64,000 nucleotides of DNA from Candidatus Bathyarchaeia archaeon (GTDB taxonomy: Archaea > Thermoproteota > Bathyarchaeia > Bathyarchaeales > Bathycorpusculaceae), in contig JAVZLQ010000001.1 in NCBI GenBank assembly GCA_038883655.1, positions 128,001 through 192,000 on the forward strand. Reading direction: 5' to 3'. The notes beneath the pieces were generated by a model. It was not told where the DNA came from. It ran no database searches and saw only the letters and a program-made list of their open reading frames with translations. Shown here in pieces: positions 49,940 to 55,046 of this stretch (position 1 is the stretch's first letter; every line of letters starts with the position of its first letter). The translations under genes and the position numbers were made by a program.

Positions 49940-50209
49940 TTGTCTAAAGGTTCTAAAGCGCGAGATAAGGGTTTTCTGCGGAAGCTAAAGGACTTTTTGG
50001 TTGGAGCCACCGTTTACAACGTAATTAAGGATTTAGAAGAAAAGAGGTTACTTGTCGAGTATGGATTGATGCTTTCTGTTTTCGGGGACATGCTTGGATT
50101 TCCAACATGCTCTTATTATCGTTTAAGGTTGCTTCCACTTTGGTTACCGAGAATTGAGTTGTGGAAGCATTATTTACTCAAGGAGAAAGATGTAACAGAA
50201 AAATTGTAA
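49940..50209 (+). CDS. Small CstA/ArsA-associated protein A
   Basis: MLSVFGDMLGFP..YYRLRLLP...WK..LLKEKDVT; paralogous to the next gene; GGAGG upstream of TTG. Confidence 0.75.
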   Translation: MSKGSKARDKGFLRKLKDFLVGATVYNVIKDLEEKRLLVEYGLMLSVFGDMLGFPTCSYYRLRLLPLWLPRIELWKHYLLKEKDVTEKL

Positions 50210-50264
50210 GGTATAATAACATTTTTATCTTTAATTAAACTTTCAAATAACAAAGTGAAGAATA

Positions 50265-50564
50265 ATGACCAGAAAAGAAGCTAATGAAAAGAAAAACGAA
50301 GCGAAAAAGGAGAGCGAAGCAAAGAAAGCAGTTAAGGGACTGGTTTACGGGATGGCTATGCACGGTATGGTGAGCTACGCTCTGAAAACGCGCATGTATT
50401 TAGAAAACCTTTTTATGCTGATCACGATGGGCGACATGCTCGGCGTCCCTGTCCTTCCACCATATTATTGCCTGCGACTCCTGCCATACTGTGTTCCTCA
50501 CATAAAGACATGGAAAAGAACGTTACTTAGAGATCGAGATGTGACCGACTCAATTTTTGCTTAA
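50265..50564 (+). CDS. Small CstA/ArsA-associated protein B
   Basis: FMLITMGDMLGVPVLPPYYCLRLLPY...WKRTLLRDRDVT. Confidence 0.78.
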   Translation: MTRKEANEKKNEAKKESEAKKAVKGLVYGMAMHGMVSYALKTRMYLENLFMLITMGDMLGVPVLPPYYCLRLLPYCVPHIKTWKRTLLRDRDVTDSIFA

Positions 50565-50576
50565 GAGGGTTAACGT

Positions 50577-51569
50577 ATGTCTGTAACATTGTCAGTTGAG
50601 CAATACTTGAAAGCACATCCGAACGTTAAGTATATTCTCTTTGGAGGAAAGGGTGGGTTAGGTAAAACAACATTATCTGCTGCAACTGCTTTTTGGCTTG
50701 CAAAGTATGGAAAAAAAGTTGTTGTTTTTTCAACGGATCCGCAAGCAAGCCTAAGCGACATTTTCGAGAGGAACATTTTCGGTAAAGGCGAAGTCGAGAT
50801 TGCCCCTAACCTCTTCGCATTGGAGATTGATGCGGATAAGCGGATAGCTGATTATCAGCAGGAAATCCGTAACAAAATTATAGAAATGTATGGTGAAGTA
50901 CCTAAAGAGGTTGATGATTACATTCAGTCTTCCGCCGCTGAACCCGCGATGGCTGAGTCAGCAACATTTGATGCTATGGTTGAGCTGATGACAAGTGGCG
51001 TTTACGACTACTATATTTTTGATATGATGCCTCATGGGCATGCAATCCGTTTTCTTGGAATGTCAGAAATACTTGATACATGGGTTAACAAAATAGTTGA
51101 GACGAGGAAGAAGGCTGCTGAGTACGGTGATGTGGCTTCTGTTTTAAGCGGAAAAGGTGGATTAGCCCAAGAGGATAAAATTTTGGAGGAACTTGAGTTC
51201 ATAAAGTCGCGGCTGGGTTTTGTCAGCAATATGATGAGGGATGAGGAACATACAGCCTTCTTTTATGTGCTCATTCCAGAACTTATGCCCATCCTTGATA
51301 CGAGAAAAGCGCTTGAAATGTTTAGGGCTTTCAGCATACCCTTAAGCGGTATTATAATAAACCAAGTTTATCCTACAGAGCTGTTGAAGCAGAAGAATCT
51401 TCCCGCGCTGTTAAAGAATAAGATATTGATGCAGCAGAGGCATATGAAGGACATTGAAACGGAGTTTGGTCCGCTGATACGTGGGGTTGTCCCGATGTTT
51501 GATCGAGAACCTAAGGGGCTCAAAATGATTGCAGAAGTAGCAAAAGCCTTGTACGGAGAGGAGCGCTAG
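50577..51569 (+). CDS. ArsA/Get3(TRC40)-family ATPase 1
   Basis: GGKGGLGKT, STDPQASLSD, FDMMPHGH, IIINQV; no Cys. Confidence 0.9.
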   Translation: MSVTLSVEQYLKAHPNVKYILFGGKGGLGKTTLSAATAFWLAKYGKKVVVFSTDPQASLSDIFERNIFGKGEVEIAPNLFALEIDADKRIADYQQEIRNKIIEMYGEVPKEVDDYIQSSAAEPAMAESATFDAMVELMTSGVYDYYIFDMMPHGHAIRFLGMSEILDTWVNKIVETRKKAAEYGDVASVLSGKGGLAQEDKILEELEFIKSRLGFVSNMMRDEEHTAFFYVLIPELMPILDTRKALEMFRAFSIPLSGIIINQVYPTELLKQKNLPALLKNKILMQQRHMKDIETEFGPLIRGVVPMFDREPKGLKMIAEVAKALYGEER

Positions 51570-52576: not shown

Positions 52577-52592
52577 AAGGGGAGAAAAAGGC

Positions 52593-54278
52593 TTAAGCAG
52601 TTTTTCCCTCTGTTTTTGCTGCTCTCAGTCTCTTGAAGGCTTTAGCTCCCTCGTAGCACATGAAAAGCCCAAGTATTAATAAGAAAACGTTAACTAACGC
52701 TGCAATTAAGCTACCAAATTTTGTTGGGTCTATGATATACCCGCTTATGCCAGTATATGTAAGGTATGCCAGTGCTGATAATGTGGTTGCCAACATGAAA
52801 AGCATCGGTATCAACGTATAGATTGTGGGACGTTTTTCTTTTGTAAGCCACAGCGATATTATCATTAAAGCTAGTCCAGCCATGAGCTGATTAGCACCGC
52901 CGAATGTTCCCCAGATGTACTGGAAAGCTGCACCTACATGCGGACTTGTTATTATGTAAACAATTATGCAAACTAAAATGGCGCTAAGATATTTGTTTTT
53001 CAAAGCACCTCCGGCCCTTAGTCCACTTAAATCGGATAGCACCAACCGAGTAATCCTCAGACCTATATGCATAATTGTTATTGCTAGCACGATCAGCATG
53101 ACCGATGCTAGTCCCTGACCCGCTGCTGTTGGTATCCCTAAGAATCCTAAAATTGTGGTTGCGCCAGTAACAAAAGAACCTGCGGGGTCGCCTACGTTAT
53201 TTGTGGTTGCAGGGTTTAAAATCGCAACGGTTGTCAGAGCTACTAACGCCAGTATTCCTTCAGCTAACATAGCGCCGCCGCCTATGAAATGGGCATCCGG
53301 TTCGGTGTCAAGCTGTTTAGATGTAACCGAAGAACCTATTAGACTGTGCCACCCCGAGATTGCTCCACAAGCAACCGTTATAAACATCATCGGCCATAGC
53401 GGGCCGCTCTTTGTTATACCTGGGTCATAGAACGCCGTTGCTAGTGAATATTGGTAGTTGGGTGCACCGATAAAGGCGCCTATTATGATTCCTATTACTC
53501 CAGCGTACACTAGGTAGAACGAGAGATAGTTGATGGGTTGTATAAAAACCCATATTGGTAATACAGCGCCAAGAAAACAGAAGAACAGCGTTATAAACAT
53601 CCAGAAGTCGAGCGCATTTGGAAATGGACCTGATGAAGGGAGAGGCGCGGTGTATGGCAAAGCTATTCCAGCCCAGATTCCTAGAAATATGATGATCACA
53701 GCGATTACGGTTGTATAAACAATGTTAACTTTAAATTTGTATGTTAGGAAACCGGCTATTACACCAATTACTGTTACAATTAACACGGGTATCGGGCTTA
53801 CGGGAAACCTTAGGAATAGGCGTGCTACCTGGTTGGTGAATGATGACAGTATTAAGATGACATACCATAAGATGTACCATAACAAAATTGTTCGAGCCCT
53901 CGGAGAGATCAACTCGTAAGTTATCGGTCCGAAAGATGATCCCTCAGATCTGGCTGAAACCATTAGGCTTCCATAATCATGAATCCAGCCGATGAATATT
54001 GTCCCGAAGATAATCCACAAAAGTGCTGGAAGCCATCCCCATTGAAGTGCTATAATTGGCCCGAGAACTGGTCCTAGGGCTGCTATACTTTTCCACTGGA
54101 ACCCGAATAGGACGTATTTGTTTGTTGGGAAGAATTCAACGCCATCCATGTATGTGTGCGCTGGCGTTTCCCTTTTAGGGTCTGACATTATAACGTTTCT
54201 GTCGAACCACTTTATGTAGCCCCAGTAGGCGATTGCATAAAGAATTATTCCCACCAGAATAACGATTATTGAAAGCAA
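52593..54278 (-). CDS. cstA: Carbon starvation protein A (CstA)-family transporter
   Basis: TPAHTYMDGVEFFPTNKYVLFG, GPVLGP, WGWLPALLWI, LPIWVFIQP, FITVACGAISGWHSL, FGGANQLMA. Confidence 0.92.
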   Translation of the reverse strand: MLSIIVILVGIILYAIAYWGYIKWFDRNVIMSDPKRETPAHTYMDGVEFFPTNKYVLFGFQWKSIAALGPVLGPIIALQWGWLPALLWIIFGTIFIGWIHDYGSLMVSARSEGSSFGPITYELISPRARTILLWYILWYVILILSSFTNQVARLFLRFPVSPIPVLIVTVIGVIAGFLTYKFKVNIVYTTVIAVIIIFLGIWAGIALPYTAPLPSSGPFPNALDFWMFITLFFCFLGAVLPIWVFIQPINYLSFYLVYAGVIGIIIGAFIGAPNYQYSLATAFYDPGITKSGPLWPMMFITVACGAISGWHSLIGSSVTSKQLDTEPDAHFIGGGAMLAEGILALVALTTVAILNPATTNNVGDPAGSFVTGATTILGFLGIPTAAGQGLASVMLIVLAITIMHIGLRITRLVLSDLSGLRAGGALKNKYLSAILVCIIVYIITSPHVGAAFQYIWGTFGGANQLMAGLALMIISLWLTKEKRPTIYTLIPMLFMLATTLSALAYLTYTGISGYIIDPTKFGSLIAALVNVFLLILGLFMCYEGAKAFKRLRAAKTEGKTA

Positions 54279-54368
54279 TGTTATCCCTCAGAAAATTGTA
54301 TGTAATGGCTATCTTAATATAAGACTTGCGATAAAACTACATTTTAAAATCTAAAGTTCAATCGGTCC

Positions 54369-55046
54369 GTGGGATCGGATGTGTACGAGTTTACAGCAAT
54401 ATTTCTCGTAGCATTAATCTTCATAATAGTATACTTCATTGGGATGCGCCAGAACAGGAAAATTGCGGTGAGATACGCGAAAGCCGTTAAGGCGTATATG
54501 TCTTCTCGCAGCGATTTTGTAGGTTTTCGTCCCTATAGCCGGGGTGGATTCCGAGCACTTTGTAAAATGAAGGAGGATTCACCATTCTCGCAAGTTGAAA
54601 TGGCAATAAGCCTCGTTGACCGCGAAAACCTGATGCACTATCCACTTTCTCTGCTGACAAAGGACAGCGACCGGTTTGCATGTTGGGGTTTTCTAAAAAC
54701 TCCATTATCACTTAATATGGAGATTTTGCCAGTAAAAGAGGAGAAAATCTGCCGAAAAATAGCATCTGAAAAAGGCCTTGAAACAGTAAACTTAAAGGGT
54801 GAATTTAATGAGTCTTTCGCAGTTCTAGCTTCAAATCACGAGTTTGCGCATAAATTTCTATCAGACCGACAATTACAAAGATGCATTCTGGAAATGAAAG
54901 CTTCTCTTAAACGCTTATCCCTAAATGAGAAAGAATCAAGAATATACCTTTTAGGCGACCTAAAAGAAGAGTCCTCAATAGAATCCTTTATAGACATTAT
55001 AATGTTTTGCGGAGAGCATTGCAGAAAAATAAGCTACATTAGTTGA
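54369..55046 (+). CDS. N-terminally membrane-anchored protein, possible CCDC47/DUF1682 homologue
   Basis: Single N-terminal TM ending YFIGMRQNRKIA; LVDRENL; ESFAVLA. The ORF is well supported; the family call is tentative. Confidence 0.55.
   Translation: MGSDVYEFTAIFLVALIFIIVYFIGMRQNRKIAVRYAKAVKAYMSSRSDFVGFRPYSRGGFRALCKMKEDSPFSQVEMAISLVDRENLMHYPLSLLTKDSDRFACWGFLKTPLSLNMEILPVKEEKICRKIASEKGLETVNLKGEFNESFAVLASNHEFAHKFLSDRQLQRCILEMKASLKRLSLNEKESRIYLLGDLKEESSIESFIDIIMFCGEHCRKISYIS

Follow-up and report, generated by a model that had tools for sequence, protein, structure and literature searches.

A co-inherited cstX-cstA-cstY cluster with an unequal pair of Get3/ArsA-type ATPases in a Bathyarchaeia genome

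The permease CstA has been associated by gene context with ATPases of the ArsA type. Castillo and Saier (2010; PMC2963123) described 26 cases in SEED that combine CstA and an ArsA homologue; 24 of the 26 also encode CstX, a protein of about 90 amino acids (aa) with a single transmembrane segment (TMS), and five archaea additionally have CstY, likewise with one TMS and about 210 aa long. The ATPases have a single domain and a length of about 330 aa, are sometimes encoded as adjacent pairs, and the operons contain no ars genes. In its passages on this cluster the same paper put forward the hypothesis that CstA is energised by the ATPase and that CstX is the coupler, taking ArsA-ArsB as the precedent, and noted in passing that the D of the 'SXD' motif can be N. 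Here we describe such a cluster in a 64,000-nucleotide stretch of DNA from a Candidatus Bathyarchaeia archaeon (assembly GCA_038883655.1, contig JAVZLQ010000001.1, positions 128,001 to 192,000), called the window below and numbered from its first letter. Judged by sequence and against those passages, its six genes are the cstA-cstX-cstY-arsA-homologue cluster, i.e. two CstX, two ArsA homologues, CstA and CstY; the two small proteins are assigned to CstX by their size, position and context. The module is already in print as a comparative-genomics prediction, the cluster is widespread, and the window contains one more copy of it. Our literature search found no later work on the module beyond PMC2963123, and it has apparently never been tested at the bench. 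The features concerned are the following.

49940-50209, plus strand: cstX-A (smallA), 89 aa, TTG start
50265-50564, plus strand: cstX-B (smallB), 99 aa
50577-51569, plus strand: ATPase1, Get3/ArsA-fold, 330 aa
51572-52576, plus strand: ATPase2, Get3/ArsA-fold, 334 aa
52593-54278, minus strand: cstA, CstA-family permease, 561 aa
54369-55046, plus strand: cstY, with an N-terminal membrane anchor, 225 aa
49829-55042, no strand: presence/absence block with all six genes, 5.2 kb, from the same-genus comparison

The coordinates of the open reading frames (ORFs) confirm the layout proposed in an initial annotation of this DNA, namely six ORFs with gaps of 55, 12 and 2 nt between cstX-A, cstX-B, ATPase1 and ATPase2, and a 90-bp divergent spacer between cstA and cstY. 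ATPase2 and cstA are convergent, with stop codons 16 nt apart. The window agrees with the cluster of Castillo and Saier in having CstA, CstX, a single-TMS CstY and ATPases of about 330 aa, and in the lack of ArsB, Acr3 and ArsD. The initial annotation had stated that ArsA homologues are encoded beside CstA and a small protein, which is indeed in print (PMC2963123), and its suggestion that small adaptors couple CstA to an energising ATPase is not new either, being the 2010 hypothesis. What is added here, as compared with the passages of PMC2963123, is an Asp/Asn split between two paralogue clades of ATPases, the CCDC47/TtfA fold of CstY and the affinity of the ATPases to Get3.

ATPase1 and ATPase2 are paralogues (37% identity, E 8e-69). 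Both match TIGR00345 (TRC40/GET3/ArsA) over their full length with 228.5 and 222.2 bits, above the cut-off of 135, and PF02374 with 235 and 214 bits, respectively. It is conspicuous that they differ at the catalytic site: ATPase1 has the P-loop GGKGGLGKTT and the switch I motif STDPQASL, i.e. a complete site, whereas ATPase2 has an intact P-loop and the switch I motif SSTNPVHSL, in which Asn replaces Asp. This difference was followed in 65 orthologue pairs (the window, G037 and 63 loci of the survey described below) in which both ORFs exceed 280 aa and a CstX lies at most 500 nt upstream; G026, whose operon runs along the minus strand of its locus, was excluded for that reason. Asp is present in ATPase1 in 65 of 65 pairs and Asn in ATPase2 in 65 of 65, with the consensus S-[TV]-D-P-Q-A-S-L in the former and S-[TL]-N-P-[VI]-H-S-L in the latter, and the Lys-Thr of the P-loop (GKT) is kept in both. 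In the tree the two proteins form two clean clades, 65 against 0, with support 1.0. From the fixed split and the clean clades it follows that the duplication and the dead site arose before the module became distributed over archaea and bacteria. The initial annotation had missed this Asn at the catalytic position of ATPase2. It stands at what we take to be the position of Asp57 of yeast Get3, from an alignment of the STDP motif. According to PMC12506534, the D57N variant of yeast Get3 binds ATP and does not hydrolyse it. We infer from the sequences that ATPase1 and ATPase2 form an obligate heterodimer with one working site, which would combine an ArsA-like architecture (two unequal halves) with a Get3-like sequence.

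The closest solved chain is the archaeal Get3 3ug6 (E 4e-64 for ATPase1 and 2e-52 for ATPase2). The archaeal Get3 3zq6 gives E 1e-60 and 4e-49, E. coli ArsA (1f48) about 1e-31 and about 1e-27, and the BagAB chains of 6bs3, with E 4e-9 and 1e-7, are the weakest PDB matches of ATPase1 and are absent from the list of ATPase2. Archaeal Get3 (3ug6/3ug7, 3zq6) shares the single-domain size, the P-loop and the switch motifs with the ATPases of the window. Its entries contain one sequence each, whereas here there are two fixed paralogues, one of them with Asn, and neither contains any cysteine. Archaeal Get3 proteins are homo-oligomers with Asp in every protomer, and a Get3-type homodimer with Asp in both protomers is not what the Asn of ATPase2, found in all 65 pairs, describes. 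The CxxC zinc site of Get3 is absent from both ATPases, as follows from their 0 Cys each, a count already given correctly in the initial annotation; 34 of the 65 orthologues of each ATPase are Cys-free. Some archaeal Get3 proteins also lack CxxC, so the absence is not disqualifying. Unlike archaeal Get3, the pair of the window type invariably has CstX as a neighbour, and CstA in nearly all cases. In the two helical regions of the ATPases the hydrophobic fraction is 0.24-0.34, similar to the 0.28-0.30 of the single-copy Get3 proteins of G019 and G024, and this comparison does not tell the two kinds apart.

E. coli ArsA-ArsB, in which a pseudo-symmetric ATPase with two sites and this fold is docked on a secondary carrier, serves as the working analogy. 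ArsA is a single, fused chain of about 590 aa (1f48, 589 aa), whereas the window encodes two separate proteins of about 330 aa; ArsA has metalloid-binding cysteines and the partners ArsB and ArsD, and neither the cysteines nor ArsB and ArsD are present in the system of the window. BagA and BagB (Rv3679/Rv3680, 6bs3) are likewise two adjacent Get3-like ATPases, and they form a heterodimer. They are only distant relatives, since the scores against NF053622/NF053621 are 56.8/39.5 bits for ATPase1 and 36/30.2 bits for ATPase2, with cut-offs of 400/521.

The distribution of the module was investigated by scanning species-representative genomes with an alignment of the small protein. At least 590 loci were confirmed in this way, and 79 of them were retained; L096 proved to be the same contig as G037 and was removed, leaving 78 loci that were assigned to archaea or bacteria by their record titles. 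In 67 of the 78, archaeal and bacterial alike, CstX is followed by ATPase1 and then by ATPase2. Ten loci are broken by a contig or locus end within 2.2 kb, and one, L084 from a Thorarchaeote, has a lone CstX and no ATPases. CstA lies within the fetched locus in 60 of the 67 cores, at a median distance of about 1 kb, and four of the seven cores without it have less than 2 kb of flank on one side. An orthologue of CstY was detected in 29 of the 33 archaeal cores and in 10 of the 34 bacterial ones. The taxa with the module are mostly anaerobes or metagenome-assembled genomes (MAGs) from hot springs and sediments. The arrangement is far beyond chance, and the families named in the initial annotation do co-occur in both archaea and bacteria.

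The same tendency is seen among the closer relatives. Among 41 genomes sampled from the order, the same three (G000, G026 and G037) have CstX, CstA and the ATPases as an adjacent pair, and the 38 others have none of these; a lone Get3-type gene occurs in two further genomes and in none of the remaining 36. All the parts are present in G026 and G037 in a rearranged order, with cstY and cstA upstream and an ABC transporter downstream. In a sample of 201 genomes of the class, CstX and CstA were found in 19 genomes each, both of them in 17 and neither in 180; two genomes (58% and 88% complete) have CstX only and two (84% and 81% complete) CstA only. These class counts are given without a test, as related genomes are not independent. 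Of the 201 genomes, 45 have full-length ArsA/Get3 matches at E <= 1e-30 and 156 have none, which is not what a general Get3-type role wherever tail-anchored proteins are made would lead one to expect. Seventeen of the 19 CstX-positive genomes have such a match, 15 of them two or more, and ATPase1 and ATPase2 are the sole ArsA/Get3 members of the window's genome. The ATPases are not a general housekeeping factor; the pair tracks CstA.

Get3 itself is dispensable and patchy in Bathyarchaeia. Two genomes of the same family, G019 (L013) and G024 (L012), have a single canonical Get3-type gene with the motifs ATDPT and DTAPTGH/K, and neither CstX nor CstA. In G026 and G037 the ABC transporter is a pair of an ABC ATPase and an ABC-2 permease directly after ATPase2 (L023 6293-8282; L024 4485-6477), which is not found in the window.

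A comparison within the genus covered a 12.3-kb stretch around the block and three genomes (G001, G002 and G003). The flanks end at window position 49828 and resume at 55043 in G003, with 27 bp between them and a flank identity of 88-90%; in G001 the corresponding limits are 49693 and 55073 and the flanks are separated by 34 bp, and in G002 window positions 48022-55043 are missing. The six genes are thus gained or lost as one unit. In 8 of 21 other Bathyarchaeia loci (L035-L037, L041-L044 and L053) the module lies between the same flanking genes at 64-76% nucleotide identity, and the divergence within the module is about that of the flanks. The simplest reading is ancestral presence with clean loss in the genus-mates; gain of the block by recombination through the flanks is possible. 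The claim of the initial annotation that the six genes are one conserved module is borne out by the all-or-none presence of the block, by the order seen in the survey and by the class-wide co-occurrence of CstX and CstA. The genus of the window offers a natural with/without comparison, i.e. sister genomes that differ by exactly six genes.

Recent insertion of an island was considered and dropped: no terminal repeats (direct or inverted), target-site duplication or integrase were seen at the block, and the module has diverged like its flanks. The neighbourhood of the block seems prone to deletions. G002 also lacks the adjoining genes for a LysE exporter and a class-V aminotransferase (window 48022-49828).

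The two CstX proteins of the window are paralogues as well (33% identity, E 3e-16), so that both the small proteins and the ATPases are twins, as the initial annotation had it. CstX-B belongs to PF25952 (DUF7990, a name also given by its Atlas cluster with a score of 0.96); 460 homologues were found, and PF25952 is assigned to 120 of the 120 that are listed. Its identity to 63 of 64 archaeal and bacterial orthologues is 53-91%, the remaining one being at 26%. The mean column identity is 56% in CstX-B, as compared with 47% in ATPase2 and 60% in ATPase1. The core motif is approximately LFMLIT-GDMLG-P-LPPYY-LRLLPY-VP-I-TWKR-LLRERD-TD. CstX-A, the upstream copy, is more divergent; it aligns with 38 upstream-copy orthologues and retains the invariant G22, G49, G53, Y60 and W75. 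Neither protein has a confident transmembrane segment, the maximum Kyte-Doolittle mean over 19 residues being 1.31 in CstX-A and 1.41 in CstX-B. The AlphaFold2 (AF2) monomer model of CstX-B consists of two long helices (residues 3-58 and 66-98) joined by a proline-rich turn, with a mean pLDDT of 65.5 and a pTM of 0.28. CstX is more conserved than ATPase2 and yet is modelled this poorly alone, a combination that fits a subunit buried in a complex, with the partner left unspecified. A complex prediction of ATPase1, ATPase2, CstX-A and CstX-B, made with a separate alignment for each chain, CstX-B as the partner and no controls, scored 0.12 against a mark of 0.32, which speaks neither for nor against an interface.

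The number of CstX copies is variable: one, two, three and four copies are present in 20, 40, 5 and 2 of the 67 cores, respectively. The Asgard loci (Thor- and Heimdallarchaeota) contain extra CstX-like copies, up to four per locus (L056 15300-15629; L057 8119-8379; L084 9995-10267; L069 15916-16230), and one such copy is alone, with no ATPase within 2.6 kb. The matches to NF041419 (cory-CC-star) are weak (31.4 bits for CstX-B and 17.3 bits for CstX-A, cut-off 80); they hint at actinobacterial small proteins as distant relatives of CstX.

CstY has one strong transmembrane segment at its N terminus (residues 1-29, Kyte-Doolittle mean 2.78). Its match to the CCDC47 family PF07946 is just below threshold (25.4 bits, cut-off 27.7) and covers only residues 10-58. 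PF07946 was found at E <= 0.01 in 12 of 43 CstY orthologues and is precomputed (PF07946.20) for 32 of 77 database homologues, and the best CCDC47 chain in a search of PDB sequences with the CstY profile, 9i78_4, has an E of only 0.2. Sequence alone leaves the link to CCDC47 unestablished, and it is the predicted fold that establishes it. The AF2 model, built from the 43-sequence alignment, has a pLDDT of 95.5 and a pTM of 0.89 and consists of the N-terminal transmembrane helix, a long helix, an alpha/beta domain and a C-terminal helix. Its structural matches are listed below (VIA-align 2 Z, with the root-mean-square deviation (rmsd) where given, and Foldseek E).

7tm3_4: Z 20.0, rmsd 2.7 A over 219 of 225 residues, Foldseek E 9.6e-10
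9i78_4: Z 17.3, Foldseek E 1.3e-8
6w6l_7: Z 13.3, Foldseek E 1.6e-6
6t84, mycobacterial TtfA: Z 14.8, rmsd 3.6 A over 158 of 178 residues, Foldseek E 7e-5
next best, an unrelated chain: Z 8.9

The best Foldseek hit has a query-normalised TM-score of 0.71. Chain 9i78_4 was named as CCDC47 by the PDB sequence search, and 7tm3_4 and 6w6l_7 were identified as CCDC47 from their entry titles, which are those of translocon structures, and from the abstract of PMC7505659. The suggestion of the initial annotation that the product of the gene at 54369 is CCDC47-like is upheld by the modelled fold. PMC7505659 mentions archaea twice, both times with respect to Oxa1-family proteins. CCDC47 and CstY have in common a transmembrane anchor, a cytosolic alpha/beta domain and the helix that follows it. 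CstY aligns to residues 135-400 of the CCDC47 chains only, at a sequence identity of 7-16%, and lacks both the N-terminal luminal part and the C-terminal extension beyond residue 400; the latter is the ribosome-binding part of CCDC47. The genomic partners of CstY are a transporter and ATPases and, unlike those of CCDC47, no Sec translocon. TtfA has the fold of the soluble domain of CstY at 8% identity, and the transporter families of the two differ. In the work of Fay et al. from 2019, TtfA is reportedly a membrane-anchored accessory factor required by the multipass transporter MmpL3. CstY, TtfA and CCDC47 may be one ancient family of accessory proteins of multipass transporters; no paper linking TtfA with CCDC47 was found in our literature search.

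A seventh gene of about 160-210 aa without a Pfam match adjoins cstY in 13 of the 33 archaeal cores and in 2 of the 34 bacterial ones (e.g. L023 11197-11751, L024 892-1467, L053 10646-11218) and is absent from the window. In L053 it separates cstY from the Tsr3 flank that is also found in the window, which suggests that the seventh gene was lost in the lineage of the window.

The cstA product matches PF02554 with 405 bits (E 6.9e-121), and PRK15015, the pyruvate/proton symporter CstA, with 206 bits against an equivalog cut-off of 1188. Its 14 hydrophobic windows overlap in part and agree with a multipass permease, and it is the single CstA of the genome. By family, it probably takes up pyruvate or peptides. 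As to arsenic, none of the eight flanking ORFs (45958-49825 and 55034-58853) matches an arsenic-resistance family, in agreement with the initial annotation, and ArsB (PF02040), Acr3/SBF (PF01758) and ArsD (PF06953) were not found in the 1.42-Mb, 93%-complete genome; ArsC was not searched for.

Gene content, co-inheritance, motif asymmetry and folds define a set of proteins that is specific to CstA and inherited with it. Our tentative choice, to which we would give a probability of roughly 45%, is a multi-subunit CstA uptake complex that is ATP-driven or ATP-gated. CstA would be the multipass permease of this complex. ATPase1 and ATPase2 would most likely be an obligate, lopsided heterodimer in which ATPase1 hydrolyses ATP and ATPase2, with Asn in place of the switch I Asp, binds ATP with poor or no hydrolysis. 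The two CstX would be helical hairpins that fold only inside the complex and link the ATPase dimer to CstA, and CstY would be a mini-CCDC47/TtfA-like accessory subunit at the cytoplasmic face. ATP binding and hydrolysis at the single site might then drive or gate uptake by CstA, as ArsA makes ArsB an ATP-driven pump. In this proposal we suppose the physical contacts, the substrate and the part played by ATP, whether as energy or as control. We favour it because the ATPase pair follows CstA in its occurrence rather than the general proteome, because the design of two unequal halves is that of ArsA, the only member of the family known to dock on a carrier, because the module is kept or lost whole, and because a five-gene machine for the insertion of one permease would be unprecedented. 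The reported role of TtfA, the other fold relative of CstY, as an accessory of MmpL3 is counted in favour as well.

A number of points weigh against such a complex. In three complete cores, one from Terriglobia (L071) and two from Thermoflexus (L094, L107), CstA is missing from the 4.3-10 kb on both sides, so that the ATPase/CstX core can be encoded away from CstA. E. coli CstA works as a proton symporter and is not known to need an ATPase, and an energiser is therefore not intrinsically required. Both ATPases are nearer in sequence to archaeal Get3 (3ug6, 3zq6) than to the pump ATPase ArsA (1f48), and CstY is most similar in fold to CCDC47, which is a biogenesis factor and not a transport subunit. 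The lack of a confidently hydrophobic segment in CstX makes its location in the membrane uncertain. Finally, no predicted interface was obtained for the proposed contacts.

Were the uptake complex real, it would join ArsAB as the second natural example of a secondary carrier that has become ATP-dependent, and carriers of the CstA family are common nutrient transporters. The Get3-like dimer with one dead site and the CCDC47 look-alike of 225 aa are simple prokaryotic versions of proteins that are under study in eukaryotes, and the module is both widespread (at least 590 loci; 19 of 201 Bathyarchaeia) and strongly conserved.

The same Get3 and CCDC47 likenesses can be read in another way, namely as a dedicated assembly kit for CstA, in which the Get3-like pair shields hydrophobic helices of CstX or CstA and delivers them to the membrane, and CstY is an assembly chaperone, like CCDC47 in the multipass translocon. 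We consider this unlikely, though it is the best placed of the rivals. It agrees with the affinity of both ATPases to archaeal Get3 and with the match of CstY to the CCDC47 chains over nearly its full length. It also agrees with the marginally hydrophobic, Met-rich helix near the C-terminal half of the small proteins (8 Met among the 99 aa of CstX-B) and with the presence of the module in Asgard archaea. However, the system occurs only where this CstA is present, and CstA homologues in genomes without the module (the control genomes including E. coli and B. subtilis) need no kit of this sort. We know of no precedent for a five-gene, ATP-driven machine that inserts a single permease. CstX is moreover no classical tail-anchored client: its Kyte-Doolittle maximum is below 1.6, three Pro and a conserved Asp lie within the segment, and it is followed by about 27 further residues. 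CstY lacks the CCDC47 parts on both sides of the aligned region, and TtfA, to which it is equally similar, is reportedly a transport accessory. The more general statement, that the module is a prokaryotic membrane-protein assembly machine with a Get3-type pair and a CCDC47-type anchor acting on a multipass permease, is one we regard as improbable. If it were true, the module would be a living relative of the ancestral context that supplied eukaryotic Get3/TRC40 and CCDC47, an idea that comes from its presence in Thor- and Heimdallarchaeota, in TACK archaea and in many bacteria.

The heterodimer with one site might also be a sensor of the nucleotide state, which reads the ATP/ADP ratio and switches CstA on or off, as a control in carbon or energy starvation, without supplying energy. 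The dead site, fixed as Asn in all 65 pairs, resembles that of switch-type, slow P-loop dimers, CstA is linked to starvation by its family name (PF02554), and the module is found mostly in anaerobes and in hot-spring and sediment MAGs, where the energy state presumably matters. On the other hand, all the catalytic motifs of ATPase1 are retained in 65 of 65 pairs, an argument for the importance of turnover, and the sequence data do not separate a sensor from an energiser. We regard a pure sensor as improbable, to about the same degree as the assembly machine in its general form. Far less probable still is a pair of stress-protection ATPases of the BagAB type that is independent of CstA, with the small protein as its partner and CstA as a passenger. 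The adjacency of two Get3-like ATPases is that of BagA/BagB, the NF053622/NF053621 and NF041419 matches point the same way, if weakly, and three cores have no CstA nearby; against this stand scores far below the cut-offs, 6bs3 matches for ATPase1 only, and the company of CstA in 60 of 67 cores and in genome-wide co-occurrence. A canonical arsenite/antimonite pump ATPase (ArsA), for which only the Pfam family name (PF02374) speaks, is refuted as far as sequence can go and is next to impossible, as the initial annotation had also concluded: both ATPases are single-domain proteins of about 330 aa without metalloid cysteines, TIGR04291 (ArsA) gives them 112 and 103 bits against a cut-off of 650, and no ArsB, Acr3/SBF or ArsD partner is encoded in the genome.

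Some minor features of the block and its surroundings remain to be described.

49900-49933, plus strand: putative promoter and ribosome-binding site (RBS), with TATA-like TATTTATA at 49900-49907 and AGGAGG at 49928-49933
52572-52617, no strand: imperfect palindrome I1 at the ATPase2 and cstA stops, 27-nt arms, 74% complementary
54279-54368, no strand: cstA/cstY divergent intergenic region, 90 bp, AT-rich

The AGGAGG ends 6 nt upstream of the TTG start of cstX-A, and together with the TATA-like TATTTATA it is the putative promoter/RBS of this gene. The palindrome may be a terminator shared by ATPase2 and cstA. The counts of the promoter/terminator scan are at the level of shuffled sequence, its consensus being bacterial and unsuited to an archaeal host. 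The block was hit only in DNA runs of hot-spring metagenomes, one of which may be the sample of origin, with no RNA run among those listed. The flanking ORFs encode a DUF4443/CggR-like regulator, a Pab87-type protein of beta-lactamase fold, the LysE exporter and the class-V aminotransferase, and further Tsr3, an NAD(P)HX repair protein, an AsnC-type protein and TiaS; the 3' ends of cstY and of the Tsr3 gene overlap by 13 nt in the window. The outer flanks are ordinary archaeal housekeeping surroundings, with a full TiaS (agmatidine synthetase) gene at window 57498-58853 and a putative regulator of the DUF4443/CggR_N type at 45958-46593.

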